A DNA stretch of 38,893 nucleotides from Nemertoderma westbladi (taxonomy: Eukaryota > Animalia > Xenacoelomorpha). Below are positions 650 to 29,243 of the stretch, piece by piece. The notes beneath the pieces were generated by a model that saw only the letters and a program-made list of their open reading frames with translations, made no database searches and had not been told where the DNA came from. Position 1 is the stretch's first letter; every line of letters begins with the position of its first letter. The stretch covers positions 1 to 38,893 of the forward strand of contig JAUCBJ010008039.1 in assembly GCA_032718475.1 (NCBI GenBank), written 5' to 3'. A program made the translations under genes and the position numbers.

Positions 650-3169
650 CTGTTTAGAGTATTTTTGTATTTTAGAAACTGTGATTTTGTATATTTTATA
701 GACTTAAATCCCATTTTCTGGGAGCGGTGTAAAAGCTTTTGTGGGATAACTGATACGTTTGCCTATGCTGGCCAGTTCCCCCCCAGGCGCTGGAATACTC
801 TAAAAAGGTTTTCTAACTGTATATATATTCCCCTCGCCCGCAAGGTACCTTTACAGGGGTTTTAACGGACATAAAAGTAATTCTGCTATATACGTGTTTT
901 AGTGGACATGGTAAGACAAAAAACTTGTAATGCACCAACCACCTTTCACAGCTTAGCCGTGATGATTCATATTACGACATCTAGCAGCTGGTTGCTGACA
1001 TGGAAACAGCCATTGGACGCGTGGTTCTTTGTTTGGCTTGGGCCAATCAAGGCGGTTTTTCCTGTCGACGTGTAGCTTTTCTGCCGATCATAAGGAGAGT
1101 GTTCAGTCTTACTGTTTTTTCTTGATACTTTGTTGTTATTGCTGTCTAAGCCAGAAACACCGGCATTTTTGGATAGATACTGCTGTACCGTAAACTGCTT
1201 GAATTATCGAAAGTATAAACTGTTACCTAATCTCACGAATCGAATATCACCTAACTCATTAATCATATTGTTTGTACTGTTATTTTACCGTCAGTTATTA
1301 ATTGTAAATATTTGTTGATGGAAATATCGCTATTTGGATAATACGGATAAATCACCCAATTCCCAATTTTCTTGATAACACTACAGGTTAGAGAGACCGG
1401 CTATACATAACAATTGCGATTTATATTAATGTGGTGTGTATTGAATCCAATGTTATTTAGCAGACCCTACGTGAGTCAATTACTGCTCTCTTTATGTGTG
1501 ATCAAATGTACTGACTGTCGGCAGAATAGTGTGTATGATTGTGATTGGTAACAAAGTATTTCCTAAAGAATACGTTTTATACTTTAATCATAAGCAGTAT
1601 CGTTGCGTTTAGTATAAGTCTTAGTTCTGTTTAAATAGATAAAGCGCCACGTCCTAAAGGAACTGTTAATATTTCCCGAAAGCCAATAATATCTGTCAGA
1701 GATTAATCATTAACGATCTATCGAATAATACATTAGGTATACACTGCAACCTTACACTGTAATAATACAATTCAAGCATCCGAATTCAGTCTCCCGGGTG
1801 TAGATCCATCGGGTGAATGATCGCGCATGGGCTGACTTCGGCTAATGTTTTGCGTATTAGCATAAATTATTGTCGTATGCTAAAGTGGTTTTAATTAACG
1901 AAAAGACATATAAATTTTGGCAGGTTAAACTGCTAAAGGTCTTCGAAAGCGCGAACAGTCGTCAATCAGGATGTATGGCAATAATCTCTGATCTCCACGG
2001 TACAATACGGTACATCAACCTGCAGACCTGTCTGCTGTCAGACAACAGGTTTTACTGCATAGGCCTACTGCAGTACTGTATAAATATCAAACATCGCGTT
2101 CTAATTATACTAAAGTCCCTTACTCGTCATAAATATTATGCCCTAATAAATTTGAGTATGCTAACGCCACGAAAGGCATCGTTCTATTAGATTAACTCGT
2201 TCTGATTTATATGTTTATTGAGTAAGAGTAACCTAAACAAGAACAGCCATCATCGCGGGGACTATAGTCTACCAGAAACCCTGACCCCCCTATGCCCCTC
2301 TTTATCTGTTTATCAACCATACATCCACTGATCCATGGGACTTGAACAGTACTTCAGCATTGAAATGTTTTGGACGTTTTGTTTTGAAAGTAAAAATATA
2401 GAAGTCTGGAAGTTTTGTTTGTTTTAATTTTTCAGGCAGTCACATTCCACCAACCAGCAACAGTCCCATCCCTTCCCACTATCCCACGGACCACCACACT
2501 GTTTCATTATAAAGTATTCCCATCTCGATGATGGGAATTAATCAGTAATCCGATGGGATTCACAGATTCAAATCCCATCTCGAAGTAACAGCAAAACAAT
2601 AACACGAAAGTCAATAGCTTTACAGTTATATTTGATTGCATTGAAAGTTAATAGAAAGAAGAAGTTAAATTGCATACCGGTATCCATTAAAATATCATGA
2701 AATTGATACGGCAGTTTAGTAGATTAAAACGGCCACAGCAAGATTTATAAAATGAAAAATAAGTAAAATCAGCACACAATATTATCAATATAGACATTGA
2801 AGACAATTTAATAAACAAATACTATAAAAAAATATCTACTAACAATCAATACATGATATATATAATATATATACATCAGCGACTACCATCGCCACTCTGG
2901 TTCAATCAGTCAGTCCGGTATCATTGTTAGCGTTTTGTTGAATTACCCACTCATCCTCAGACCCTCATGGACACCGACGACGAGCTCTAACCCTAACCGT
3001 TAGTCGATTCCTCCTTGACTGGAAACATCAGGTTCGGGCCGTTCGGCCCATACAAAGTCATTAGCCTCCATGCCTGAACCCACAGGATCATAAGATCTAC
3101 AGTATGTATCGGTATATCGTTCAGTCGTTTTTTCCTTTGTCAGTACTGTAGTATTGATAGGCTCCGTCT

Positions 3170-3332
3170 CGTGGGTATTCAGGGGACCCCCATTCGACGT
3201 ATTCGCATCTCCTCCTGGTTGTTTCGGGTACCACCGCCCGCCATATGCGCATCTCTTCGTGGTTGTTCCGGGTACCACCCCCGTTCGCCGCATTCGCATC
3301 TCATCGAGGAAGTTCGGGTCCGGGTACCCCGT
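3170..3332. repeat. Diverged GC-rich triplication of about 45 bp
   Basis: Three recurrences of (ttc)gcatctc...cgggtacc(a/c)cc. Confidence 0.45.
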
Positions 3333-3581: not shown

Positions 3582-3798
3582 GGGCCTCCCTAAAACCCGG
3601 TCCGGTCCCGGTCCCCGGTCCCGGTCCCCAAGACCCCTAAAACCCGGTCCGCCGGTCCCAATGATAGTCTACGGGGAATTTATCCAAAACTAGGACCGGG
3701 TAAAACCCGGTCGGTCCTGACCCCTAAAAGTCGGTCCATAAAAACCGGTCCATGCTTGGATTGGCCAATGAAGAAATATTCCAGCCAATAAAACAAGG
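3582..3798 (+). repeat. Left TIR, 217 bp, with internal CCGGTCC sub-repeats
   Basis: Reverse complement of 5687-5903 with about 4 mismatches. Confidence 0.92.
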
Positions 3799-5200
3799 AT
3801 AGTGATATACAGCCAATGAAAAGCTTTGGTTCTGATGAGATACAGAAGCAACTTAGGCAATGAAAGTGTCAGGCTTTAACTTCTGGGGAGAGGCAGAATT
3901 GCAAGCCATTAGCGAACATCTTTAATTATTCTAGAGCCGTTATCCAAATGTCTGCGTGCGTATGTCTGTCCTAAAGTACTGAAGGACCATATCTGCTGTG
4001 ATATTCCATTTTCGGATATAATGGTTATCAAACCCTTAGCCGAAGATCCTTGGAGTGCTGCGGCTGTTAAAGATTTTAAGATGTTAAAGATGGCAGATAG
4101 AAGTGGCATTGGAAATGGGTTGCTCTACAGTAGGCCTAGTTATGGACGGGTTATACAGTATGTTCCCCTATCCATCCATCAACACGAATCCCCTGATGCC
4201 ATAGTTTTTTCCTTGAACTTATTGGAGGCATTTCAAAGACGTATATTGGACCTCCAGAATGGGGTCTAATGATCCGTGCCGATGAGTTATTTACCAAATG
4301 GGAATCTGGGCACATTAAAATTTTATAATATTCATCAAATGATTTTTTACCTTCTGAATGACAATAAATTTTTGCCATTGACATTTTTATCGAACGTGGT
4401 AGGTACTATGCTAGTTAGTAATTGCTTTCCTGGCTAAGTTGATATGTGTAGGAGGTAGGTATGATGATCAGAACACATTAATAACCGCGTTATTTTTTAG
4501 TTTTATCAAGGTATAGGCATGTGGCTTTCTAGCCATTACCGGTATACTATAGAAACTGAAACAGTACATGCGATGACTGTCCGACTTGTACACCATACGA
4601 TCTGCATCATGGCCTACTACTGTACAGTACATTAGAGTGCCTATCATGCCTGCGCAATAGTCTGATAAAAATAACCCTAAAGTGATTACTGCCATCGGTT
4701 CCATATTACTTAGATTATTATTATTATTATTTAATCCAGGCATACATACCCCATAAAATACAGTAAATATTTAACATGGAACACAAATACCGGAGGCACA
4801 AGATAATTGGAAGGGAGACCGAATCAAGGACAACAAAATTATTGTTATAAAAAAATAATACTCAATTAAGTACGTCATAAATAGAGACTGAATTTAATTG
4901 GGGGGTGTAATATATTTATAATGTAATTGCTAAAACCTCCAAAAACCTCCATATACTTATAGAGATCATCTAGCGATTTTTATGAAATTTTCCATGATCC
5001 TTAAGGCAAGCAAGGCCCTTTCACATCCAAACGGAACCGTACACGGCGCGGTACCGCAGGGCCAGCGGTGCACCGCTGAGTGTGAACGACCCTGCGGTAT
5101 ACGAGCGATCTTAATACGAGCGGCCGATTTAAACTCATTTTATATGCCGACGACAGTACTCTTATTTTCTCTCAATACTGTATATATCTACTGAATTATG

Positions 5201-5332
5201 CCAGGACATAACGACGCAGGACCTAATGTCAGAATGTCTCAGCCTTAGGACCTAATGATGCAGGACCTAAGGACAACTCACAGGAACTAAAGACCGAGAG
5301 ACGCAGGACCTAACGGCCAAAGAACCTACTGA
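5201..5332 (+). repeat. Cluster of short (C)AGGACCTAA direct repeats, probably a subterminal array of a nested MITE fragment
   Basis: About 7 variants of AGGACCTAA within 130 bp. Confidence 0.5.
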
Positions 5333-5686
5333 CTGAAATGAAGCGTTAGCGATGCCGGTGGGGGATGGGGTGGTGATGACAAAATCCGAGGTCACATATC
5401 CAAGGCCATGTCACATCGGTAATCAATGGTAATTTCATTTTGTTATGCCGTAGTGTACTACTGTACTGTGTATTGCAGTATTGTATAGTATACAGCGTAG
5501 GGCCTGCCTACTACAATGCTAGATATATAAAGTGGGAAATAAGGCCGTGTGATAATTCCCACGGATGAATATGATGCAGGCCTACCTATAGGCCTACTGT
5601 ACATAGACAAAGACAGAAAGATAATCCCTGTAATAAAGTAAACACCGCTGTATCTGTGTATAGCAGCCAGCAGTAATACTATTTAA

Positions 5687-5903
5687 CCTTGTTTCACTGG
5701 CTGGAATATTTTTTCATTGGCCAATCCAAGCATGGACCGGCTTTTATGGACCGACTTTTAGGGGTCAGGACCGACCGGGTTTTACCCGGTCCTAGTTTTG
5801 GATAAATTCCCCGTAGACTATCATTGGGACCGGCGGACCGGGTTTTAGGGGTCTTGGGGACCGGGACCGGGGACCGGGACCGGACCGGGTTTTAGGGAGG
5901 CCC
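5687..5903 (-). repeat. Right TIR, 217 bp
   Basis: Reverse complement of 3582-3798; directly abuts the LTR remnant at 5904. Confidence 0.92.
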
Positions 5904-6049
5904 TTGTTTCACAGTTATTCCAAGAAACCGAAGGTTTAAGCGTATTTACGCGTCAAAGATTCTGCCACAGCTCAAATTGCTTAGGAAGTTTATCGCTATT
6001 GATAAACCGTGATAGCGATAATACTTATTCCTGCATTCACGGTTTAACA
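5904..6049 (+). repeat. 5' LTR remnant (3'-terminal 146 bp)
   Basis: 100% identical to 17444-17589; ends ...GGTTTAACA. Confidence 0.88.
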
Positions 6050-6063
6050 TTTTTAACAAAAAC
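6050..6063 (+). promoter_or_regulatory. Putative non-tRNA (self-priming) primer-binding site TTTTTAACAAAAAC
   Basis: Starts at the first base after the LTR CA; lacks TGG; exact reverse complement of 17163-17176 (GTTTTTGTTAAAAA) in the 3' LTR. Confidence 0.6.
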
Positions 6064-7703
6064 AAATAAAATTTATAGCAGTTTGCTTTGTACCACAGTA
6101 CATACTCATTTATAAATCAGGTGGGACAACCAATCAAAATTTTATTTATATTTTATCCGATAGGCTATTTCTATAAATGCCACTATTACTGTATTACCGG
6201 CCGACCGGTACTGTTGAGGTTGACTGTATTACAGTATTACCGGCAGACCGGTACCGGTACTGTTAATTAAATCTGCTAGTGTATATATGTGTTTATGTTT
6301 TGGTTGATTGTGTGAATTATCGTATTCGTGGTCAGGTGGTGTGTGCCGGCAACTGTTACTGTACCTTACTGCCTTAGTTATGCTGTTATGTGTATATATC
6401 ATATCAGTATACAGGTATATGTCTGTATGTATGGAGCGTTTTGTTTGTGTGTATGGCCATTGCTGCATAGTAAAATAGACAATGTTTTGGATTTATTGTC
6501 GTTAAGGGTAACAGGTAAAGCCCAGTAGCGGAAGTTTTCGAATAAACATCCAAGAGCTGTCAACTGGCGATCTATTCTGTTCTGGTTGATATTACAGGCT
6601 GCTTGGTGTGAGACTTTTGTACTGTCGGCGTCTTTTTTGTGGACTTGAAAGAAAAAGTCATGGAAAAGGTAAGTTTCATTATATTTTGTCTATAGTCCGT
6701 TAGTAGATTTATAATACCGGTACATTATATTTCAAGTTAATTGTGGTATTATAACGCCCTGGATCAGTGGATCAGGTGAAAAGGGTAGGTAAACAAGTAT
6801 TTTAATACGGTCCCGTCATTAACTAGGCAGCTAGACCAATCTCTATAGCGGAATAGTGTCTATATTAGGCCTACAGTATATATACTGATATACCGGTACT
6901 TTTGCTCTTTTGTATAATATATGTTTAGAACCCTGATAAATAGGCCTATATTTATATATTTACCGGTTCTATGAAGGTATATTACAGTATTATATGGATG
7001 GCTAGACGTTGTAGTTGTTGAGTCTTTAAGCACAACCTGCATTGCAACATAGTTGTAGGGTATAGGCCTACTAATAATTTACTGTAATTAAAAGTAGGTC
7101 ATTTAAATATGCCTTATGTTATATAATACTATGCCCATTTGTTCAGTTTCTCTATACTTTATAATTTGAGTAGCCCATGGCGCAATTACATATAATTATT
7201 GATAGTCTATTCAATTGATCTTTTTTACTTACTTCTGTACTTATGTTATGTATTGCAGTAGGCAGGTAAGCTAGGCTACCGGTACTGTGCGACTTGCAAT
7301 TGCAGAATTGTATAACCTTTGTTTGGGTTTTATTACCGTATTATATTGGATATTTGGTCATAGGCCTATCCAAAATCCCAAGATATAGTTACATTCGTTC
7401 TAGATCATTAGAGTAAACGTGCAGACGTGTATCGTGTTGGTAGGCCTGGCCTACTACACTTGTATAGATATATACTGTAGATAGGTTACTATACTATAGC
7501 CTACTATAGCCTACTATAAAACTATATACTTTCTCATCTAGCTTACAGCAACCAATATTGAATTATTTAAGAACAGTAGTCATACACAAAACATACCGGT
7601 ACCAGTTAAATTTTCTGCCAGTATAAAGTACATATTTTTATTTACCTCTGGCATTTTCAACTATAATTTATAGTTTTTAGACTGGTAGGGTAATAAGGTA
7701 AAC

Positions 7704-10700
7704 ATGTCTCAAATTGAGAACCTTAGTGAGATCGGTAGTGAGACTGACCTTTCCATAGCATCAGAAAATATGTCTATTGTTAGTCAAAGTGTTAGTGAAG
7801 AAAACACAGAGTCTAGTGATGCAAATAGGAATAACCTTGATGTGCATTTGGGATGTTCAAACAAGCATTTACCATCTAAGAGAGCACAAGGATTTAGATT
7901 AGCATTTTCTGAGAAGGTTAAGAAGGTACTAAGGGTAGCTTATCAACAGGAGCGAGATACTACTATTTCATATGTTGCACTAAATGACTTTGTCAAACAG
8001 ATAACCGTGGCATATTATAGTACAAGTAATTCCTATAAAGAACTAGAGTTAGAACTTACAAACTTTGACAGTAAAAATTATAAGTCTCAATATACCAGCA
8101 TCACTACAGCTAGAGACAAAACATTAGAATGTAGTATAGATGCTATTAAGAGATTGCAGATCATAGCTCACCAGTGTCAATTTGCAACTTTAAATGTTGA
8201 CTTAATATTTGGGCCCTTGGCTCAGTCGGCTTTCCAAGAGGATCCTTCTAGGTCAGATGATACAATGATGAAACAGCCATCAGCTGCACAGTTCATTGAT
8301 GAAGTAGAAAGGTTGGAATCACAAGTTGAACCACAATATTCAGTGTCAAATGTTACTAAGGGTACAATTGATGAAATAATAAGAACAGAGCAGGGGAATC
8401 AGGAGTTACAAATAGGTTTGGCTCATAAACGCCTAGTATTACAAGCAGAACATAGACAACGACAATTAGAAATAGAAAAAGAACGGCCTTTTTTGCAAGA
8501 AATGGCATTGAAGGATGAGCTAGATATCAAACGTCAAGAAGAGGAACTGAAAATTAAGTTAAATTCTTCTACTAGAGTAGCAAAAATAATTAATTGCATG
8601 AGGACTAGTTCAATGAAATCTGGATCTGCAGTATCTTCTACTGCTGCAAGTAAAAGTTCTAAAAGGTCAAGTCTATTAACATTTCTTCACGCTGAACCTA
8701 GTGCTAGTATAAAACAGACCCATATAAATTCTACAGTGAATGTTACTTCATCACTATTGAAGCCAACCATAAGATGTCAAGGTACCAGTTATTCCACAGC
8801 AGTGGAAAGTAGTTTGAGTGTGTCATCCAATGTTGCACCATTATCTGTTACATCACCACATGTCCAAACAATAACAACCTCATCAAGTGGTTATGTTGTT
8901 GGTCAAAATACAGTACCCCAAGACCAACCACTATTTTTCATTGAACCTTTGCAACAGGATGTAAGATCTAAGCAAATGTCAACTCAGATATCTCAGGTGG
9001 AATCAAATAGAGGGAAAGTACACACCTCGACACCTTGTAACATAAATCAACAATCTAAGGAAGATATTAGTAAAAAATCCACTGATATTCTTAAAACAGT
9101 TCCAACAAGTTGTCATTCAGATCATTTTTCTTCTAGGATATTTATAAACAAGAATAGGTATAGTAAAGCCCCTGATCATGTTTCTGATTCTAAGAATATT
9201 TCAGAGGATAGGTTTGTTCATATCAATAATATTCACAAGCAGTTAGATGATGTGGATAAAAGATTGATTTCAATGGAAAAGAGTATAAGAACATCAAAAT
9301 CAGAAAATAATGAAGTGCTGGGGAGTATTTCTGAATCACTATTCAATGAAATGGGTACTATGCGAAATAAAATGGATGAAATATCCTCAAATACATTATA
9401 TATTAATGAGTTTCATGAATTACAGCAAAGTCATGCAATATTGTCAGACATAGTCTTTGCAAAGCAACACAAGTATGATACAGAGGAAGAAGGTTTAGTT
9501 TGGGAAGGTTATCAGGAGAGAGGTCCTCCTAATCAGGCATATTCTGCACAAGCTCCAGGACTAGCGACAGCTGCGGTACAGTCTTCCAATAATGTCCATT
9601 ATAATTCAGTATCCAAGCATCCAAATTCACATGCTACCGAATTGGCCATGGGAGTGGCACAGTATAGGAATAATCAGAATTCCAGTTATACTAACCCTTC
9701 GTTTCTACAAGCTACAACTTCAAGAGTGTCCACGGGAGCGGCACAAGGTCATAATGATAATACAAATGTAATATCGCAGGCAACTAATGAGACAAACTCA
9801 GTTCTATTTCCAAATGCATCAATTAATGCAGATTTATCTCAGCGGCAATTACTTGTAAATACACCAGTTTCCAAGACACCACCAGCACCTCCAAATTTAG
9901 ATTACGCCACACAGCCAACAGCACATCATTATAGGAATCCTCCAGGAATTATTGATTTATCTGGGGCAAGAATTGTTGAAGAAATGAGCAAATTAGCAGC
10001 TAAACAGTCATTGCCTCATCTATCCTTTCAGAAGTTCAGTGGTGATCCTCAAAAATGGTTAGGCTTTGTTTTAAATTTCCGTAGCTTTGTTTTAGACAAA
10101 CCTTTTTCGGATACTGAGAAATATACGTACCTACTCAATCTGCTTGACAAAGAACCCAAGAGATTTGTTGAGATTTATGATGGTACAAGAAATGCTTTTC
10201 AGAAGGCATGGGAATCTTTACAAGAACAATATGGAGATGAAAGAAGCTTAGCGTTGCAGCTTATGGATAGTATTTTCAGTGGTGACAGTATTAAGCATCC
10301 AAAAGATTTATTGTACTTTCAGAAGCAGTTACAATCAACTCGAGATAAACTTTCAACCTTGAAATTTGACTATTTATTAGATGATTTCAGTAGGTTACCC
10401 AAAATTATCGCTAGACTTCCAGATTATGTAAGAAAGAAATGGAGAAGGAAGGCTCAAGATTTGAGGGATAACAATCGCCAAGAAACTCTAGATGATCTAA
10501 TTTCTTTATTAAAGAAAGAAACAAAAGCTGAGAATGACCCTATTTACTCAGACAGGGCATTAGGTTGTACTGAAAGACGACATCATGGTTTGTCATTTAA
10601 GATGTCAGAGACTATCACAGATTCAGCAGATAAAGTCATGAATTCAGTTAGATTAGCTATAGATCATTTCTGTGTTCTTTGTCAAATTAAAGGGCACTCT

Positions 10701-12581
10701 TTGACTAAGTGTCAAAAATTTAGAGATACAAAATTATCTGGACGACGGGAATTAGTTAGAAAGCTTGAACTTTGTAAGAACTGTTTTTCTCAAAAACATT
10801 TTCGAAAAAACTGTCCATCGAGGATTAAATGTCAACACTGCCAAGGAAATCACCATACCTTGTTACATAGTGATGCTATGGTGGGAAAGGGAGTCTCCTG
10901 GAAAATGACTAAGGCAAAGACACAACTCCAAACAAAGCTAGCGAATCCAATTGTCAATACATCAACAAATGTGGTTCCTCAAACTGGTAGAGTTAATGCT
11001 ACAGTGCCAGTTTCTAACATCGATTATGAATCTGAAGATGAATACGAATTTGATTCCATAGATGGAGAATCAGATCTTGACAGTGTAACAATGGAAGGAG
11101 ATGATCATACAGATCAGTGTTATATGATAAAGAATAATTTAGACTATATGAAGTCATTTAATGTTATATCTTTAAATATTATTGGTTCAAAGGGATCTCT
11201 GAAAGTGAATGCATTATTAGATGATGCTAGTTCTGTATCATTTATTGACAAAGATCTTGCTGAAAAAATTGGAACATTGTATAGTGAGAAGTCATTGCCT
11301 ATTAAAACAATAGAAAAGGTAGTGCCTCTTAATGTAAGTTACTTAACTTGTGAACTTGATTCCATTGACAATAGTATACGACCTAAATATTTGCCATTGC
11401 GTAATATTAAGCTTGCAGCTTTGAAAGATTTTACAAAAGGGTTTGACAATGAGTATCAATGGACATCTTCAGAAAACAGTTATTTCAATAGTTTAGGTGT
11501 TCCAGAAATTGTTGTTGATGTTCCCAATATATCACTTCTTCTGGGCAATGATGTTTTCGAAGCTCATATGGTCTATGAATATAAACCCAGAATTCCACGT
11601 CCACTTGATATTTATGCTGCTAGAACACTATTTGGTTGGTATCGACGTGGCCCTATGAAAGCCACTCTAGTTAACAGGAAACTCTCAAATGAAATGACGT
11701 TTTTGTGTAGTAGTGATGTTTCTAAAAATAGTATGGATAAGGTAGCAACTTCACCCATTAAATTATATGAAGATGACTCAGACGTTGAGGAGAACATAGC
11801 TTATCCTGTAAACTTGACAGTGTCGAGGAATGATATTGATGAATTAATTACTGATAAAACAAGTCATATTAACATTGAACAATTGTTAGAAAGCGGTTTT
11901 GATAACCTGGATGTTGCAGCTGTTTATGAGAAAATATATAAGGAAGCATATTTAGATGAAGCTGTAAAAGCCTTTTTTGAGAAGGATACTCCTGATCGTG
12001 GATCTCATAGATTAGTAACAGAAGTAGAACACCTCAGATCAAAGAAAATCTTACAGACAACTACCAAGTTATTACCCAATGGGCACTATTCTGTTGGACT
12101 GCTTTGGAAAAATGATAACCCAAAGTTAATAAATAATAGACCATTAGCTATAAAAAGGGCTATGATGCTAAGACGACGTTTATTGAGTGATGCAGATGCT
12201 TATCGCATGTATCGTGCACAATGTGATGGCTATATTGAGAAAGGTTATATTATTCCAGTAGAACATCCAGAGATTACATCAGAGAGAACATATTATCTTC
12301 CACATCATTTTGTAACTGATCAAGACAAACCTGGAAAGGTTAGAGTTGTAAATGATGCTAAGGCCAAGTACAAAGGGATGTCATTGAACAGTCACCTTAT
12401 GGAGGGTCCTAATTTGACAAATTATATGTTAGGAATTTTGCTGCGAGTAAGTGAAAGGAAAATAGCCTTCTCGTGTGATATTGAAAGTATGTTCCACCAG
12501 GTTTACTGCTACGTTGAAGATCAAGACAGTTTACGTTTTTTATGGTGGCCAAATGAAGACCTTGAGGGAGGGAGAGCCTAA
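7704..12581 (+). CDS. BEL/Pao gag-pol polyprotein, 5' part (long low-complexity N-terminus, DUF1759-like capsid, three zinc knuckles, aspartic protease, RT N-half)
   Basis: FSGDPQKW...EKYTYLLNLL; CVLCQIKGHSLTKC, CKNCFSQKHFRKNC, CQHCQGNHHTLLH; ALLDDASSVSFI; YYLPHH, KVRVVND, SLNSHLMEGPNL, DIESMFHQV, LRFLW. Confidence 0.93.
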   Translation: MSQIENLSEIGSETDLSIASENMSIVSQSVSEENTESSDANRNNLDVHLGCSNKHLPSKRAQGFRLAFSEKVKKVLRVAYQQERDTTISYVALNDFVKQITVAYYSTSNSYKELELELTNFDSKNYKSQYTSITTARDKTLECSIDAIKRLQIIAHQCQFATLNVDLIFGPLAQSAFQEDPSRSDDTMMKQPSAAQFIDEVERLESQVEPQYSVSNVTKGTIDEIIRTEQGNQELQIGLAHKRLVLQAEHRQRQLEIEKERPFLQEMALKDELDIKRQEEELKIKLNSSTRVAKIINCMRTSSMKSGSAVSSTAASKSSKRSSLLTFLHAEPSASIKQTHINSTVNVTSSLLKPTIRCQGTSYSTAVESSLSVSSNVAPLSVTSPHVQTITTSSSGYVVGQNTVPQDQPLFFIEPLQQDVRSKQMSTQISQVESNRGKVHTSTPCNINQQSKEDISKKSTDILKTVPTSCHSDHFSSRIFINKNRYSKAPDHVSDSKNISEDRFVHINNIHKQLDDVDKRLISMEKSIRTSKSENNEVLGSISESLFNEMGTMRNKMDEISSNTLYINEFHELQQSHAILSDIVFAKQHKYDTEEEGLVWEGYQERGPPNQAYSAQAPGLATAAVQSSNNVHYNSVSKHPNSHATELAMGVAQYRNNQNSSYTNPSFLQATTSRVSTGAAQGHNDNTNVISQATNETNSVLFPNASINADLSQRQLLVNTPVSKTPPAPPNLDYATQPTAHHYRNPPGIIDLSGARIVEEMSKLAAKQSLPHLSFQKFSGDPQKWLGFVLNFRSFVLDKPFSDTEKYTYLLNLLDKEPKRFVEIYDGTRNAFQKAWESLQEQYGDERSLALQLMDSIFSGDSIKHPKDLLYFQKQLQSTRDKLSTLKFDYLLDDFSRLPKIIARLPDYVRKKWRRKAQDLRDNNRQETLDDLISLLKKETKAENDPIYSDRALGCTERRHHGLSFKMSETITDSADKVMNSVRLAIDHFCVLCQIKGHSLTKCQKFRDTKLSGRRELVRKLELCKNCFSQKHFRKNCPSRIKCQHCQGNHHTLLHSDAMVGKGVSWKMTKAKTQLQTKLANPIVNTSTNVVPQTGRVNATVPVSNIDYESEDEYEFDSIDGESDLDSVTMEGDDHTDQCYMIKNNLDYMKSFNVISLNIIGSKGSLKVNALLDDASSVSFIDKDLAEKIGTLYSEKSLPIKTIEKVVPLNVSYLTCELDSIDNSIRPKYLPLRNIKLAALKDFTKGFDNEYQWTSSENSYFNSLGVPEIVVDVPNISLLLGNDVFEAHMVYEYKPRIPRPLDIYAARTLFGWYRRGPMKATLVNRKLSNEMTFLCSSDVSKNSMDKVATSPIKLYEDDSDVEENIAYPVNLTVSRNDIDELITDKTSHINIEQLLESGFDNLDVAAVYEKIYKEAYLDEAVKAFFEKDTPDRGSHRLVTEVEHLRSKKILQTTTKLLPNGHYSVGLLWKNDNPKLINNRPLAIKRAMMLRRRLLSDADAYRMYRAQCDGYIEKGYIIPVEHPEITSERTYYLPHHFVTDQDKPGKVRVVNDAKAKYKGMSLNSHLMEGPNLTNYMLGILLRVSERKIAFSCDIESMFHQVYCYVEDQDSLRFLWWPNEDLEGGRA

Positions 12582-15516
12582 GGAGTATAAGTTTCAAGTT
12601 CACCCTTTTGGTGTAATTTGTTCTCCTGTCAATACTGGAAATGCATTAAAACAAACATCAACAGATAATAAAGATAAGTTTCTTCCAGAAGTTCATGAAA
12701 TGATTGGAAAGGATTTCTATGTTGATGATGGTTTTCATTCAGAAGATGATGTACAGAAAGCAATAACTATTGCTCTTCAAGTTAAGGAATGTTTGAAATT
12801 GGGTGGTTTTAATGTTACTAAATTTGTTAGTAACTCCAAAGAGTTTCTATATGGCATACCTCAAGAAAGTCGTGTCACTAGTAATCAAGATCTAGAGACA
12901 ATGCCACTACCTGTTTCGAAGATGTTAGGGATTCGCTGGGATCTCAACTCTGATAGATTATTTATTAGATGGAAGACATGGAAGAGCCCTAAGCAGTGGA
13001 CCAAAAGGCTTTGTGTAAGTCTGTTTAGCGCATTTTTTGACCTTATTAATATGATTAGTCCAGTTATACTGACAGCTCGACTTATTATACAGAAGTTGTG
13101 GCAACTTGATTTAGGTTGGGATACCGTTATTCCAGAAGAAAATGCGATGGAATGGAAAAGGTGGGCAAGTAGTATTCAAGGAATACAAAACTTTTCAATC
13201 CCAAGAGAGTATTTTCCTGGCTCACCAATAGTGGGAATATTTGATTATGAATTGCACTCATTCTGTGATGCTTCTGAAAAGGCTGTTGGTGTTGTGATTT
13301 ATCTAAGACGAATTTCAACAGATGGGAGTATATATGTTGCATTCGTAACATCAAAATCCAAAACTATTAACTCAAAGACATTTTTGTCGCTACCTCGGAA
13401 AGAACTTCTTGCTGCATCAGTGGCAGCAGAGTTAACAGATATGGTTAACACCAACTTATCTTTTCCACTAACATTAACATTATGGACAGATTCTATGCTT
13501 GTACTAGCATACCTGGTCACCCAGTTCCCTTTGAAAACCTATGAGGCAAATAAAAGATCTAAAATTTTAGATCTCACTATAATTGATCAATGGAGATGGT
13601 GCCCTGGGGACATTAATATAGCTGATATAGCCTCCAGAGGAACAACAATCGAAAAACTATTGGAGAATACCCAATGGACTAATGGCCCTGATTTTTTGTG
13701 GCAGGATAGAAACCAATGGCCAGTTACTGGTACTATCCATCCTTCTATAAATGCTAAATTAGAAACAAAGAAGTCAAATAGTTCTAAGAAAACAAAACCT
13801 ACTACAGTCTCAGTTAAAGATGATACCAAAATATATAATATGGATCATGGCAGAGACCTTAAAGATCAAAATGATCATATTGTTTATGAAGGCGAGGATT
13901 GTATTTTAGAAGAGTATGTACATTCTACGATTGTAAATTCTGAGTTTCCTGATGTTACAAAGGTGGATAAATTTTCTCAGAAACTATGTGATACTCTTAG
14001 TTCATGGAATAAACTCTGTATACGTACTGCATGGCTTATACGTTTTATTAATTGGCTGAAATCAAAGAAAACGTCGATGTATCCTAAACATATAACAATT
14101 GCAGAACTTAATTGTGCTGAGAAGAAACTAATAATTCTAGCTCAGAAACGTTCATATCCGCAAGAATACTTGATCCTTATGGATGGAAAGAAAGTATCTG
14201 ATACATCGCCATTATATAGGTATACACCTTTCCTTACAGATGGTGTAATACATGCAACTACCCGTCTGCCAATAGAAGATTATAATAAAGACTATTGTAA
14301 CCCAATTATTATACCACCAAACAATTATATACAACATCAGCTCATATGGGATGTGCATCTACAAACTCTGCATTCTGGGAGATCCATAATTATGTCAGAG
14401 TTACGTCATAAATATTATTTAGTAACTCAGCGAGCAGCATTGGATAAAGTTCTTAGAAATTGTATACAATGTAAACAATTTAACAGCAGACCCATGAAGC
14501 AACAAATGTCGGAAATACCAAAGGAGCGGATAACAGCATTTAAACCTCCCTTTTCAACAACAATGGTCGACCTTTGGGGTCCTGTTTCTTGCAAGAGAGC
14601 AAGGACAATGGTTAAACGGTGGTGTGTTATGTATACATGTTATGCAAGCCGGGCAGTGCACATTGGTAGGGTTACTGACCTTAGCACCAATGCGTTTATA
14701 TTGTCACTAAGAAGATTTATAGGTCGGAGAGGGACAGTTCAAAAAATTAGTTCAGATAATGGAACCAATTTTAAAGGAGCAGACAATGAGTTATCAAAGG
14801 CTGTGAAAAAATGGAATAAAAAACAAATTACATTAGAACTCCGTGACAAGGGAATAAATTGGGAATTTCATACAGCTAAAGCTCCATGGCGTTCTGGAAT
14901 GGTTGAGAGACTTAATCGATCAGTGAAACAAGCATTCTTCAAAGCTATTCCCCCAAATATGACATTAACAGATGATCAGTTTGTAACTGTGCTTGTCGAA
15001 ATAGAAGCAATAATAAATTCACGTCCTTTAGTAGGTCAAACCACTGATATTAATGACCCTCAGGTCATCACACCAGGACATTTACTTATGACCAATCCTT
15101 CTGCCATCATACCTCGTTGTGAACCTGAAGAATGTCACCAATATGCACGAAAGGCGTGGAAGGTAACGCAATATGTTGCTCAACGTTTCTGGGACCATTG
15201 GTTAAAATACTATATACCATCATTGAGTATCCGTTCCCAGTGGTATTATACCAATAGAAACCTATCAGTAGGTGACCTAGTTCTAATAACGGATGAGAAT
15301 ATACCCAGACGTAAGTGGTTAACTGCTAGAATATTGGAAGTGAAGCCTGACTCAGCTGGTCTTGTAAGATCTGTAGAGCTTCTAACCATCCATGGTTCCA
15401 AACTAAAACGCCCAGTACAACGACTGTGTTTATTGGAAGAAGCTCGGAAAGATATAGGTGACTACACCAAGAAATTGTCTCGTACAGATGCATTGAAGAC
15501 TTCTGTTTTGCATTGA
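12570..15516 (+). CDS. BEL/Pao gag-pol polyprotein, 3' part after the frameshift (RT C-half, RNase H, integrase, DUF5641-like C-terminus)
   Basis: HPFG, YVDD, LHSFCDASEKA, WTDS, NIADIASRG, H-H-C-C, VDLWGP, SDNGTNF, GMVERL, VGDLVLI; homology resumes at GEPKEY near 12570 within ORF 12475-15516. Confidence 0.93.
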
Positions 15517-16252
15517 CTGTTATTATGCTATATTCTATAATATACGATATTTTAAGTTTTATTTCGTATATATTATTGTTGTATTAGTCCTAGATGTGAA
15601 TAATACGGGAAATGTACTATGCTAGGTCAAGTAAGTATATGGTCTCTAGCATCATTTATGTTCAAGTTTTAGTTCATTACATAATTTGGAAAAAGGTTAG
15701 TTATTTTTGTTGTTGGAATATATTTTAGTGTGATTATAATGAAATTGATTAATGACTATGTGAGTTGACTATTAATTTACATATGGAAAATAAGTATGTG
15801 TGTATGATATACTGTATATTTTTTTTTATTCCTTAAAGTAAAGATCAAATATATCGTTATATACATTTATTTGATCTTGTGGCAAAAAATTGAAGTTACA
15901 CATAACTAAGATTATGTGTATTGATTAAGTTGGTTGTTTCACAATCAGGATAGTAAAAAATGATTGTGGTTTTCTTGACAAAATGGTATTTAACAGAGTT
16001 GAGAAAATATACTGATTGAGTCAGGCAAACTAACTATAAATTTTATCCAAAGCAGGAAATAATAATTTTAAATATTTTCGGATATTATATCAAAATAATT
16101 TCGAATATGTGGAATTCTGTGAGCTGGACTATTGGGCTCTCTGTATGTAATGTTCGGTTTAAATTGCTATTTATTCCCGATAGTATTTGCTGCTGCCTAT
16201 TAAGAAGTCTTAGTAAGTCTAAAACACCATACTCAAGTAAAATTGCAGTGAA

Positions 16253-16622
16253 GCACCACAATGCGCTTCTTTGATGATCGCACCACACTGCGCTTCTTTG
16301 ATGATCACACCACACTGTGCTTCTTTGATGATCGCACCACACTGCGCTTCTTTGATGATCACACCACACTGTGCTTCTTTGATGATCGCACCACACTGCG
16401 CTTCTTTGATGATCGCACCACAATGCGCTTCTTTGATGATCGCACCACACTGCGCTTCTTTGATGATCGCACCACAATGCGCTACTTTGATGATCGCACC
16501 ACAATGCGCTTCTTTGATGATCGCACCACAATGCGCTTCTTTGATGATCGCACCACACTGCGCTTCTTTGATGATCGCACCACAATGCGCTTCCTTGTCG
16601 CTTGCACCACAACGCGCTTCTT
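16253..16622 (+). repeat. 27-bp minisatellite, 13 units plus a partial, in the 3' UTR of the BEL element
   Basis: Unit GCACCACA(C/A)TGCGCTTCTTTGATGATC at exact 27-bp spacing. Confidence 0.97.
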
Positions 16623-17051
16623 ATAGCACTACAGGTCTATAGTAAACAGATTACTATTGAGGAATAGAATAGTCAATGGTTGACTCTCTGCCTATTTGGA
16701 TGTGTCGACCTTTTGGATTAAAAGATCAATGCGAATATATATATATGAACAATAGCCCACATGGATAGATATATTTATTGGATTTGTATAGATTCTTGTG
16801 ATGTATTTCAAATATTGAGTGAAAGTATTTTATCTATACATATATAAAGACATCAGAGCTGTACTTTATAGTATTATAATAATTGTAAGACAATGATTCT
16901 AAGTACTTTATTATATTACTTTATTAGACTTGTATAGATTCTTGTCATGTATTTCAAATATTGTGCTATTGTCAGTAATTTGTCAAAAACCTTTGTAAAT
17001 GTTCATTGCGTCCTATTTTTTGTAAATTTATATAAAGGATTATCCAAATTT

Positions 17052-17060
17052 AGGGAGCAG
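17052..17060 (+). promoter_or_regulatory. Putative polypurine tract
   Basis: AGGGAGCAG immediately before TGTAAGG. Confidence 0.55.
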
Positions 17061-17589
17061 TGTAAGGACGCCACCTAGCGTGTATTGATGGTATTTTACC
17101 TATATATAAAGATGGTGCTACCGGTATGGAATTACATTTCATATAACTTGTTAGTGTGGCAGGTTTTTGTTAAAAACATATTTTAGTATTTCAGTCGGTT
17201 TTATTATAACACTGTCAGACTGTAACATTCAGACTCATCAACATACAGATGAAATCAGATATGTTGAGTTCGTCGTGAGGTGGTTGTGCCAGGGTGAAAG
17301 GGTTGTGGGTGTGGAGGGCTGAACGGGCATAGACGCTGACTGTCTGCATAGGCCAGTGACCAAATACCTGGGCCTATGTATCAGTTATGGACCGCATTAT
17401 TAGGGACCTTCCCCGGGGGGCTTGATTGTCCAATCTTTTGGGATTGTTTCACAGTTATTCCAAGAAACCGAAGGTTTAAGCGTATTTACGCGTCAAAGAT
17501 TCTGCCACAGCTCAAATTGCTTAGGAAGTTTATCGCTATTGATAAACCGTGATAGCGATAATACTTATTCCTGCATTCACGGTTTAACA
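17061..17589 (+). repeat. Inferred full-length 3' LTR (529 bp, TGTAA...TTAACA)
   Basis: TGT after the PPT, TATATAAA within 17101-17110, PBS-complementary 14-mer at 17163-17176, last 146 bp identical to the 5' remnant. The left boundary is inferred. Confidence 0.65.
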
Positions 17590-17603
17590 TACTTTGTATA
17601 ATT

Positions 17604-17878
17604 TTATGCATACTTTGTAACAAATAACATCACATTTCCAAAGTATTCACCACCATTACCTAAAACTTTCTCTATTAATCTAATGGAGCATAATTCAAAG
17701 TCAAAGTATTCTTGCCGATTGTAGTTAGAATATTCCATATCTCCGCGAAATTCTGCATCGTTTGGTGGGTCAGTTGATATAAACCCGAGTTTTCTTCCTA
17801 AATATTTTATATGAATTAATGTGGATCCAAAGTATGCAAGTTTATATCCTTTAGCAACTTCGAGAAGATGAATTGTTC
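17604..17878 (-). CDS. Candidate terminal coding exon of an unknown minus-strand gene (GTIHLLEVAKGYKLAYFG...VMLFVTKYA*)
   Basis: 91 codons open to TAA in AT-rich DNA, preceded by acceptor ...ctatttcaaaaCAG. Confidence 0.4.
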
Positions 17879-22215: not shown

Positions 22216-22362
22216 GATTCTCAATGTAATGTTGGAATTGGGATGCGCCAGCTAATAGACTTACTAAATAGTCAACCACCAATGACGATGTTATTGGGGG
22301 CCTCTTGTAGCATTGTTACTCAACCAACTGCACAAACATCTGCTAACTGGAATCTTATTCAG
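22216..22362 (+). CDS. Internal exon of a GABA-B-receptor-like class C GPCR (Venus flytrap / ANF_receptor domain): DSQCNVGIGMRQLIDLLNSQPPMTMLLGASCSIVTQPTAQTSANWNLIQ
   Basis: Acceptor ttttctttttCAG, donor CAG|GTACAT, 147 nt, phase 0/0; aligns with the GABA-B pattern DS.C....G...L.........G.CS.V....A.....WNL.Q. Confidence 0.85.
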
Positions 22363-23237
22363 GTACATATATTACCTGTAGCATTGTTACTGAACCAACT
22401 GCACAAACATCTGCTAACTGGAATCTTATTCAGGTACATATATTACCTGTAGCATTGTTACTCAACCAACTGCACAAACATCTGCTAACTGGAATCTTAT
22501 TCAGGTACATATTTTCCTTGTAGCATTGTTACTCAACCAACTGCACAAACATCTGCTAACTGGAATCTTATTCAGGTACATATATTACCTGTAGCATTGT
22601 TACTCAACCAACTGCACAAACATCTGCTAACTGGAATCTTATTCAGGTTCATATTTTCCTTGTAGCATTGTTACTCAACCAACTGCACAAACATCTGCTA
22701 ACTGGAATCTTATTCAGGTACATATTTTCCTTGTAGCATTGTTACTCAACCAACTGCACAAACATCTGCTAACTGGAATCTTATTCAGGTACATATTTTC
22801 CTTGTAGCATTGTTACTCAACCAACTGCACAAACATCTGCTAACTGGAATCTTATTCATGTACATATTTTCATTGTAGCATTGTTACTCAACCAACTGCA
22901 CAAACATCTGCTAACTGGAATCTTATTCATGTACATATTTTCCTTGTAGCATTGTTACTCAACCAACTGCACAAACATCTGCTAACTGGAATCTTATTCA
23001 GGTACATATTTTCCTTGTAGCATTGTTACTCAACCAACTGCACAAACATCTGCTAACTGGAATCTTATTCAGGTACATATTTTCCTTGTAGCATTGTTAC
23101 TCAACCAAGTGCACAAACATCTGCTAACTGGAATCTTATTCATGTACATATTTTCCTTGTAGCATTGTTACTCAACCAACTGCACAAACATCTGCTAACT
23201 GGAATCTTATTCAGGTACATATTACCTGTAGCATTGT
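22306..23237 (+). repeat. 71-bp tandem array (13 units plus 11 bp) derived from the exon 3' end and splice donor
   Basis: Unit TGTAGCATTGTTACTCAACC...CTTATTCAGGTACATATTTTCCT; first unit overlaps the exon. Confidence 0.97.
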
Positions 23238-26414: not shown

Positions 26415-29243
26415 CCCATGGAGGACTCAACGTATTGCACATCGCCGTTGTGTGAATAACCTGATCCATGGAGGACTCAATGTGTTGCACATCGCATCGC
26501 CGCTGTGTGAATAACCTGACCCATGGAGGACTCAATGTGTTGCACATCGCATCGCCGCTGTGTGAATAACCTGACCCATGGAGGACTCAATGTGTTGCAC
26601 ATCGCCGCTGTGTGAATAACCTGACCCATGGAGGACTCAATGTGTTGCACATCGCCGCTGTGTGAATATCCTGACCCATGGAGGTCTCAATGTGTTACAC
26701 ATCGCCGCTGTGTGAATAACCTGACCCATGGAGGACTCAATGTGTTGCACATCGCCGCTGTGTGAATATCCTGACCCATGGAGGTCTCAATGTGTTGCAC
26801 ATCGCCGCTGTGTGAATAACCTGACCCATGGAGGACTCAATGTGTTGCACATCGCCGCTGTGTGAATAACCTGATCCATGGAGGACTCAATGTGTTGCAC
26901 ATCGCCGCTGTGTGAATAACCTGACCCATGGAGGACTCAATGTGTTGCACATCGCCGCTGTGTGAATAACCTGACCCATGGAGGACTCAATGTGTTGCAC
27001 ATCGCCGCTGTGTGAATAACCTGACCCATGGAGGTCTCAATGTGTTGCACATCGCCGCTGTGTGAATAACCTGACCCATGGAGGTCTCAATGTGTTGCAC
27101 ATCGCCGCTGTGTGAATAACCTGACCCATGGAGGACTCAATGTGTTGCACATCGCCGCTGTGTGAATAACCTGACCCATGGAGGACTCAACGTATTGCAC
27201 ATCGCCGCTGTGTGAATACCCTGACCCATGGAGGACTCAATGTGTTGCACATCGCCGCTGTGTGAATAACCTCACCCATGGAGGACTCAATGTATTGCAC
27301 ATCGCCGCTGTGTGAATAACCTGACCCATGGAGGACTCAATGTGTTGCACATCGCCGCTGTGTGAATAGCCTGACCCATGGAGGACTCAATGTATTGCAC
27401 ATCGCCGCTGTGTGAATAACCTGACCCATGGAGGACTCAATGTGTTGCAGATCGCCGCTGTGTGAATAACCTGACCCCTGGAGGACTCAACGTATTGCAC
27501 ATCGCCGTTGTGTGAATAAGCTGATCCATGGAGGACTCAATGTGTTGCACATCGCCGCTGTATGAATATCCTGACCCATGGAGGTCTCAATGTGTTGCAC
27601 ATCGCCACTGTGTGAATATCCTGACCCATGGAGGTCTCAATGTGTTGCACATCGCCGCTGTGTGAATAACCCGACCCATGGAGGACTCAATGTGTTGCAC
27701 ATCGCCGCTGTGTGAATAACCTGACCCATGGAGGACTCAATGTGTTGCACATCGCCGCTGTGTGAATAACCTGACCCATGGAGGACTCAATGTGTTGCAC
27801 ATCGCCGCTGTGTGAATAACCTGACCCATGGAGGACTCAATGTATTGCACATCACCGCTGTGTGAATAACCTGACCCATGGAGGACTCAATGTGTTGCAG
27901 ATCGCTGCTGTGTGAATAACCTGACCCATGGAGGACTCAATGTATTGCACATCGCCGCTGTGTGAATAACCTGACCCATGGAGGACTCAATGTGTTGCAC
28001 ATCGCCGCTGTGTGAATAACCTGACCCATGGAGGACTCAATGTATTGCACATCGCCGCTGTGTGAATAACCTGACCCATGGAGGACTCAATGTGTTGCAG
28101 ATCGCCGCTGTGTGAATAACCTGACCCATGGAGGACTCAACGTATTGCACATCACCGTTGTGTGAATAACCTGATCCATGGAGGACTCAATGTGTTGCAC
28201 ATCGCCGCTGTGTGAATGAATATCCTGACCCATGGAGGTCTCAATGTGTTGCACATCGCCGCTGTGTGAATAACCTGACCCATGGAGGTCTCAATGTGTT
28301 GCACATCGCCGCTGTGTGAATAACCTGACCCATGGAGGACTCAATGTGTTGCACATCGCCGCTGTGTGAATAACCTGACCCATGGAGGACTCAATGTGTT
28401 GCACATCGCCGCTGTGTAAATAACCTGACCCATGGAAGACTCAATGTGTTGCACATCGCCGCTGTGTGAATAACCTGACCCATGGAGGTCTCAATGTGTT
28501 GCACATCGCCGCTGTGTGAATAACCTGACCCATGGAGGACTCAATGTGTTGCACTTCGCCGCTGTGTAAATAACCTGACCCATGGAAGACTCAATGTGTT
28601 GCACATCGCCGCTGTGTGAATAACCTGACCATGGAGGACTCAATGTATTGCACATCGCCGCTGTGTGAATAATAAGACCCATGGCGGTCTCAATGTGTTG
28701 CACATCGCCGCTGTTTGAATAACCTGACCCATTGAGGACTCAATGCGTTGCACATCGCATCGCCGCTGTGTGAATAACCTGACCCATTGAGGGCTCAATG
28801 TGTTGCACATCGCATCGCCGCTGTGTGAATAACCTGACCCATGGAGGACTCAATGTGTTGCACATCGCTGCTGTGTGAATAAACTGACCCATGGAGGACT
28901 CAATGTGTTGCACATCGCCGCTGTGTGAATAACCTGACCCATGGAGGACTCAATGTGTTGCAGATCGCCGCTGTGTGAATATCCTGACCCATGGCGGTCT
29001 CAATGTGTTGCACATCGCCGCTGTTTGAATAACCTGACCCATTGAGGACTCAATGTGTTGCACATCGCATCGCCGCTGTGTGAATAACCTGACCCATGGA
29101 GGACTCAATGTGTTGCACATCGCCGCTGTGTGAATAACCTGACCCATGGAGTACTCAATGTGTTGCACATCGCCGCTGTGTGAATAACCTGACCCATGGA
29201 GGACTCAATGTGTTGCACATCGCCGCTGTGTGAATAACCTGAC
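26415..29243. repeat. 50-bp minisatellite, about 56 units
   Basis: Unit CCCATGGAGGACTCAATGTGTTGCACATCGCCGCTGTGTGAATAACCTGA head to tail, no spacers; a few variants with an extra CATCG. Confidence 0.98.

Follow-up and report, generated by a model that had tools for sequence, protein, structure and literature searches.

A BEL/Pao retrotransposon of Nemertoderma westbladi with a primer-binding position complementary to its own inferred long terminal repeat

The 38,893-nucleotide (nt) contig JAUCBJ010008039.1 of the Nemertoderma westbladi assembly GCA_032718475.1, which in its entirety is called the window below, contains a single BEL/Pao retrotransposon. Directly after its 5' long terminal repeat (LTR), this element carries a 14-nt sequence that is complementary to a segment near its other end. 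The pairing of positions 6050-6063 with 17163-17176 is present at the sequence level; the function of this signature in priming is unproven. We consider it likely that reverse transcription of the element is primed, in one form or another, by its own RNA, and we lean towards the form in which an unspliced primer, derived from the RNA's 5' end, is cut by RNase H. The overall estimate is the higher one because two other forms of self-priming, each of low probability, add to it. Self-priming is a known mechanism, and its probable occurrence in BEL/Pao, a group defined as tRNA-primed, would be a new form of it. What the window contributes is a divergent case in which the match is contiguous, accompanied by a second predicted helix and perhaps by a splice switch.

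The pairing had been pointed out in an earlier note made from the letters alone, and its description proved accurate. The site (TTTTTAACAAAAAC) starts at the very first base after the LTR end at 6049, and its reverse complement is identical to 17163-17176 in every letter; this 14-nt match extends by 0 nt on either side and occurs once in the window. No tRNA-type site is present, the first TGG after the LTR being at 6122. No tRNA genes were found in the window, and an Rfam search of 15400-17700 at E <= 5 yielded one chance-level match. The 30 letters following the LTR are identical in all three runs X1-X3, and no variant is listed within 17163-17176 for these runs, which represent two samples (X1 and X2 come from one, perhaps the very source of the window; a further run with a small share, X4, does not extend over the primer site). 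The primer site is thus a trait of the family, which is multi-copy, rather than a mutation of a single copy. The family is young: the longest X1 contig differs from the window by 19 letters over 7.4 kb.

None of the control start positions reached a 14-nt match to 15613-17589, neither the 20,499 in the flank (maximum, 13 nt) nor the 1,610 in the leader (maximum, 11 nt), that is, 0 of 22,109 in total. Markov estimates of the chance of such a match are about 1e-4 or lower, and the 14-mer arose in 0 of 3,000 shuffles of 17061-17589 and in 1 of 3,000 shuffles of 15613-17589.

Two predicted structures that were absent from the earlier note flank the primer site. The leader on its 3' side is predicted to form a 22-bp helix (13 + 9 bp, with one G-U pair and a 2x1 loop; -21.3 kcal/mol) with a strand in the 3' non-coding region. 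This pairing was the best among 2,272 windows of the element and was equalled in stability by 0 of 200 shuffles. With the LTR downstream of the primer, the same flank pairs over 7 bp only (17199-17205), far less well than with 16023-16046. On the 5' side, the last 50 nt of the LTR, at the end of its unique 5' region (U5), are predicted to fold into a stem-loop (z = -3.9; 0 of 200 shuffles equally stable). Two overlapping 10-bp helices at this LTR end (17530-39/17552-61 and 17543-52/17577-86) could make an H-type pseudoknot or a switch. Of the 13 inverted matches of at least 10 nt that link the leader (1,655 nt) with the 3' non-coding region, the two longest are both found within the leader's initial 30 nt.

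The earlier note had suggested a check on related BEL families, and this check turned up 14 distant relatives that share the anatomy but not its letters. We surveyed 95 related BEL/Pao loci (80 of 569 confirmed ones and 15 further ones), most of which have no readable LTR end; the end was fixed by a direct repeat in 10. Six of these 10 loci, from four families, carry a TGG tRNA-type site and no self-complement (none of at least 8 nt in four; no more than 5 nt for four in another scan; L062 assessed by motif only). In each of the four fixed-end loci without TGG, there is a self-complement of 11-15 nt at a distance of 2-3 nt from the end of the LTR, and the two types of site never occur together in the 10. 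In L021, L026 and L057, the self-complement (12, 15 and 12 nt, respectively) lies across a GTAAG...YAG splice junction. In L022, it is contiguous (11 nt), is kept in both LTRs, which are 74% identical, and has the core TTTGTTAA in common with the 14-mer of the window. The LTRs of L022 (566-911) end in TA, not CA, and a 19-nt island around the primer is kept.

Scans called 10 more self-complementary loci, nine spliced (L016, L024, L031, L043, L046, L049, L058, L081 and L091) and one contiguous (L069), bringing the total to 14, with 12 splice-junction and two contiguous cases. The 12 splice-junction loci lack TGG and have a 10-15-nt self-complement 0-3 nt from the LTR end. When 10 spliced loci were cross-tested, each site matched its own junction over 10-15 nt and foreign junctions over no more than 7 nt in 88 of 90 combinations, the two exceptions being one sister pair. 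The intron-less L069 and its intron-containing tree neighbor L016 have GCTGAAC in common, with matched changes elsewhere in the pairing. A strict scan, which covered 4,699 CA positions across 40 loci, returned spliced matches of at least 12 nt in five loci, three of them at fixed ends. Not counted were off-site 10-11-nt matches from relaxed scans (L001, L015, L054 and L075), long matches in L082 and L088, which stem from local inverted repeats, and a 13-nt junction match seen by eye in L086, with a GT donor but no AG. L018 and L032 duplicate L016 and L031, L065 was left uncalled, and the 5' LTR of L001 is not readable. Loci L081-L095 represent animal-type BEL/Pao elements in 15 contigs filed as bacterial genomes, mostly bins (likely host contamination), with one Wolbachia chromosome record.

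Trees were built from 66 of the first 80 loci (at least 650 aligned amino acids), and then from subsets comprising 20 and 17 loci. They separate the 11 loci labelled as self-complementary at that stage from the six tRNA loci, each set falling on its own side of the tree (support 93-95, with a star in one of the trees). The independent origin of self-priming in the lineage of the window, as proposed in the earlier note, is not borne out: the trait marks a broad BEL/Pao branch, and the long branch of the window element cannot be placed in or out of it, membership being neither rejected nor shown (p-AU 0.37).

The assignment to BEL/Pao, made previously without database searches, is borne out by the order of gag, protease, reverse transcriptase (RT), RNase H and integrase and by family-specific domains. 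A domain search detected DUF1759, Peptidase_A17, Integrase_H2C2 and DUF5641, and the same domains occur in the named top homologues of the window proteins. With these BEL/Pao domains and no chromodomain match in the search, the element is not a member of the Tf1/sushi group of Ty3/gypsy chromoviruses. The two open reading frames (ORFs) are separated by a frameshift within the RT, which implies that the present copy is defective. RNase H and other catalytic motifs in ORF2 were read by eye against consensus sequences. The protease motif in ORF1 reads LLDDAS; the usual form is D-S/T-G. The closest proteins are no more than 39% identical, L001 being the nearest locus (39%), and no relative was found in viral contigs searched with the protein and with the alignment.

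The International Committee on Taxonomy of Viruses (ICTV) describes Belpaoviridae as having an 18-nt tRNA-Arg or tRNA-Gly site, LTRs of 0.2-1.2 kb and a genome of 4.2-10 kb, and their replication as poorly understood (PMC8742986). The window element agrees with this profile in the Gag-Pol domain order, family-specific domains, putative TG...CA LTRs and animal-type host signals, but is longer than 11.6 kb and lacks the 18-nt tRNA site, as do the 14 relatives. Its proteins place it in BEL/Pao, where it is an exception with respect to the tRNA site.

The sole long direct repeat at the element ends (5904-6049 and 17444-17589) is 146 bp long and 100% identical. The 3' end of the LTR is further backed by run X2, where a different flank directly follows 17589 and the LTR contig stops there. 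The 5' copy is most simply explained as a remnant, probably truncated at 5904 by the DNA transposon that abuts it; no target-site duplication was found for either this transposon or the BEL/Pao element, and the flank of the empty-site allele in runs X1-X3 is absent from the window. For the 3' copy, we infer an LTR of about 529 bp with 17061 as the preferred start and with the partner 17163-17176 inside it. Among the 174 TG sites ranked by polypurine tract, 15613 ranks 26th, 17168 58th and 17445 72nd; a start at 17168, which offers a perfect 7-bp terminal repeat, was rejected in the absence of a purine tract. The best candidates of the window score 3.1-3.4, compared with 6.5-30 for 14 of 16 relatives (left-one-out). 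Contig depth in run X1, a weak measure, fits a start at 17061 (implied single depth 97/97/89), and a start at 15613 fits neither X1 nor X2. The distance from the primer end to the LTR end is 413 nt in the window element and 46-463 nt in 10 spliced relatives, a range that suits an LTR of about 529 bp. A 99-nt segment (17481-17579) has a low-depth homologue in X1-X3 (14 differences in X3), with unrelated ends and no nearby TGG, which is perhaps the LTR end of a sister family.

The TATA-like boxes and the TCAGTC at 17191 described in the earlier note are present. The TATA box at 17103 is canonical and is followed by an initiator 31 nt further on, a spacing that suggests transcription from about 17134 rather than from about 17163, the start predicted earlier; folding, considered below, sides with the latter. 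In three of the five self-complementary relatives with a readable TATA box, the primer lies 140-224 nt downstream of it.

Splice-site models trained on 10 relatives were used to score 87 acceptors and 118 donors in 15620-17589. The best acceptor (rank 1) is 17194/17195, in the TCAGTC, and the donor at 17150 ranks fifth; together they would delimit a 45-nt intron enclosing the 14-mer. The complement itself is contiguous and does not span a strong GT-AG junction. Position 17163 was rejected as a donor (rank 79 of 118); a GA-AG intron (16056-17162) bounded by GCAGG would be non-canonical. Speculatively, the spliceosome might steer BEL/Pao priming both ways, the primer being built by splicing in the relatives and being intronic (17150-17194) in the window element, where the spliced RNA would serve as messenger only and the unspliced RNA as genome; we regard this as rather doubtful. 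In its boldest form, the primer would be the debranched intron itself, cut back as far as its branch zone, a run of A at 17172-17176 that lies 18-22 nt upstream of the acceptor. The junction of the 45-nt intron (17145-17149 joined to 17195-17201) would pair over 12 nt (5 + 7, one G-U) with U5 positions 17465-17476, which follow CA plus 2 nt, the build of the primer sites of the relatives. This pairing was found post hoc and was matched in 2 of 400 shuffles for that junction and in 10 of 400 for any of 26; the U5 segment may once have served as a primer site, or it may trap spliced RNA. The leader (6050-7704; 1.65 kb) also carries several canonical splice sites.

In the form of self-priming that we favor, unspliced RNA would start near 17134. 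Its 17163-17176 segment, in the 5' copy, would anneal to 6050-6063, with the U5 hairpin to one side and the leader helix to the other. By analogy with Tf1, the RNase H of the element would cut just after 17176, and the new 3' end would prime minus-strand DNA at the terminal CA of the LTR. With a start at about 17134, the primer would be a capped, unspliced 5' fragment of about 43 nt, with its last 14 nt paired. The helix between the leader and the 3' region might hold the RNA ends together and help strand transfer, like CYC5/CYC3 of Ty1. In this scheme, start, cleavage and priming are modelled on Tf1, and the flanking structures are folding predictions.

Several observations weigh against this scheme. 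The 14-bp duplex is weak and AU-rich (-11.4 kcal/mol), and an equally stable partner was found for 32 of 200 shuffles of the 14-mer, a non-significant result, given that shuffles of so simple a word resemble the original. The probability of the 14-bp helix is about 1.0 for RNA starting at 17163 but 0.3-0.4 for starts at 17060-17155, because an 8-bp helix (17155-62/17502-09) competes in these nested models, to which crossing helices are foreign. Splicing at the best acceptor, 17195, would remove the 14-mer, and a splice junction is used in 12 of the 14 self-complementary relatives, not obviously in the window element. The top polypurine-tract score belongs to 17427 (3.4, about level with 17061), depth in X2, again a weak measure, fits a short LTR better (309/326 versus 309/243), and no 5' LTR junction was found within 16620-17589 in the run contigs; at least 124 loose contig ends exist beyond those listed, and a 5' junction at 15613 may be among them. 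There is no AATAAA in 15613-17589. Contiguous matches of 12-14 nt also arose by chance in the strict scan, at CA positions away from the primer site, in 5 of the 40 relatives, so contiguous cases were counted only where the LTR end is fixed. No covariation is seen for the exact pair of the window, the nearest protein being 39% identical. The window branch in the trees is unstable, joining L062/L070, or L001/L021 once L062/L070 are left out. As to polyadenylation signals, an AATAAA is present in the leader (6065-6070), within the second helix.

The partner might instead be assembled by splicing. With an LTR of about 2 kb from 15613 and a start upstream of 16023, exon 1 would hold the second-helix strand and exon 2 the 14-mer, and the two would be brought close together by removal, at the CAG before 17163, of an intron of about 1 kb that includes the tandem array. 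The match indeed starts exactly after this CAG, the top-ranked donor is at 16213, past the helix strand but short of the array, and a deletion variant in X1 ends at 15612. L081 has the same build, with a 1,640-bp LTR (1563-3202), a 1,022-nt intron containing repeats and the acceptor GCAG followed by GTTTTAAC, and in 10 spliced relatives, the leader past the site tends to pair just upstream of the primer (mean -13.4 kcal/mol versus -10.3 for 90 foreign pairs, p = 0.02). Nevertheless, we find this arrangement improbable: the CAG ranks 34th of 87 acceptors (score -2.6 versus 7.5-13.8 in relatives), and a better acceptor follows after 32 nt; the pairing gains 0 nt from the best donor and 1-4 nt from others; 15613 fares poorly in both polypurine rank and depth; and three TATATAAAG boxes would be intronic. 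About equally improbable is self-priming from the 3' end of the RNA or in trans, with a start further downstream (TCAGTC, 17191) or a short LTR (17427/17445), the partners residing only in the 3' region of the RNA or in a separate small RNA transcribed from the TATA box at 17103. Both partners lie 3' of pol, the X2 depths and the top polypurine score agree with a short LTR, and the second-helix strand of L021 is upstream of its predicted start; a self-encoded primer gene is also said to exist in Cer7, a nematode BEL element. However, each of the 14 self-complementary relatives has its partner in the LTR or else downstream of the polypurine tract, in the LTR-side region, the depths of X1 are a poor fit to a short LTR (97/138/97), 17445 has a low polypurine rank, and an LTR of 145-163 bp would have no TATA box.

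Priming by a host RNA (a tRNA fragment, or a mitochondrial or oligo-adenylated RNA), with the 14-bp and 22-bp helices serving structure only, in circularization, dimerization or masking of the AATAAA at 6065, appears unlikely as well. Such an RNA would need the 3' end GUUUUUGUUAAAAA, and both the CCA ends of mature tRNAs and the termination of RNA polymerase III transcription by a run of five U count against it. Moreover, the site letters of the relatives vary freely yet track their own LTRs, and tRNA-type and self-complementary sites do not co-occur in the fixed-end loci. Precedents are half-tRNAs, used by about 2% of plant elements (PMC6317226), and the primer site of Ty1, which pairs with the element's own RNA when tRNA is unbound (PMC9503155). 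Finally, it is very improbable that the match arose by chance or through a single copying mishap in DNA that is AT-rich and nearly palindromic. The caveat of AT-richness raised in the earlier note holds, 12 of the 14 letters being A or T and both sites imperfect palindromes; the energy shuffles point the same way, and a very large number of windows was screened. Against chance stand the empty set of control starts, the position of the two longest inverted matches, the multi-copy family with its site and the same anatomy in relatives.

The Tf1 primer consists of the first 11 bases of its own RNA, cut by RNase H (PMC7175516), within a 'pretzel' of three duplexes, one of which adjoins the site (PMC10085805). 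Tj1 and Tf2 behave alike, and in Tf2 there is a downstream start whose RNA does not include the primer (PMC4600332, PMC5341516); an RNA lacking the primer and starting at 17193 would have its precedent there. Like these elements and the Tf1/sushi group, the window element has an LTR-adjacent site, flanked by (here predicted) duplexes, that is complementary to its own (here inferred) LTR and not to a tRNA (PMC7175516, PMC10085805, PMC4600332), and its U5 hairpin adjoins the site as does one duplex of the pretzel (PMC10085805). It differs in belonging to another superfamily, in a complement of 14 nt that is probably about 30 nt from the cap, as opposed to the first 11 nt, and in the 3'-side duplex, which pairs 1.1 kb upstream of the primer, whereas that of Tf1 pairs with the LTR downstream of it.

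Self-priming has also been predicted for Tcn1 (Ty3/gypsy) and TAR/Houba/Osr-1 (Ty1/copia) and for 12% of the plant elements surveyed (PMC6317226). These plant and fungal elements of other superfamilies have the same kind of sequence signature as the window element; the accessible part of that paper mentions no BEL/Pao case and no role of splicing. In Ty1, which is tRNA-primed, leader sequence near the site (CYC5) pairs with distant 3' sequence (CYC3), as predicted for the window element (PMC9503155). In the splice-junction BEL/Pao relatives, the primer exists only after splicing; the window element, by contrast, resembles L022 and L069 in that its candidate primer is contiguous, and splicing may remove it. 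Term look-ups in the accessible text of four BEL/Pao surveys (PMC3118150, PMC554778, PMC6238403, PMC8220671) returned no discussion of their primer sites, and that of PMC13524379 no mention of 'self-prim'. Searches of the openly accessible literature returned no paper on self-priming or splice-built primers in BEL/Pao.

Should the signature prove functional, all three superfamilies of LTR retrotransposons would contain self-priming branches, including a large one in animals. This bears on whether tRNA priming or self-priming is ancestral, a question raised in PMC3601003. Self-primed elements would presumably escape control by tRNA fragments, and annotation tools that require a tRNA site would miss or mis-bound them. 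The link with splicing opens a direct test of priming.

Table 1. Features of the BEL/Pao element and its surroundings in the window
Feature	Position	Strand	Remarks
Non-autonomous DNA transposon, 2.3 kb	3582..5903		220-nt terminal inverted repeats; abuts 5904
5' LTR remnant (3' part)	5904..6049	+	terminal ACA; identity to 17444-17589
Primer-binding position	6050..6063	+	complement of 17163-17176
Second-helix leader strand	6066..6088	+	overlaps AATAAA 6065-6070
Predicted leader exon	6598..6668	+	inferred; ATG at 6660, GTAAGT donor, in-frame splice onto ORF1 (gag)
ORF1	7689..12581	+	gag (DUF1759), protease, first RT part
ORF2	12466..15516	+	remaining RT (YVDD), RNase H, integrase (Peptidase_A17, H2C2, DUF5641)
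Second-helix partner strand	16023..16046	+
27-bp tandem array	16253..16622	+	13.7 copies; 3' non-coding region
Polypurine-tract candidate	17043..17060	+	TTTAGGGAGCAG before TGTAAG; preferred but weak; rank 3 of 174 TG sites, score 3.1
3' LTR	17061..17589	+	3' end fixed, 5' end inferred; alternatives 15613, 17427/17445
TATA box and predicted start	17103..17134	+	inferred; TATATAAAG, start at about 17134
Candidate 45-nt intron	17150..17194	+	inferred; GTTAGT ... TATTTCAG; encloses the 14-mer
Candidate self-primer	17163..17176	+
U5-terminal stem-loop	17540..17589	+	10 perfect pairs (17543-52 with 17577-86); directly 5' of primer site

Elsewhere in the window (22304-23237, 26415-29243 and 36041-38791), there are satellite arrays, one with a 71-bp unit in 13 copies and one with a 50-bp unit in 56 copies, as well as an ORF of a long interspersed nuclear element (LINE) with endonuclease and RT.

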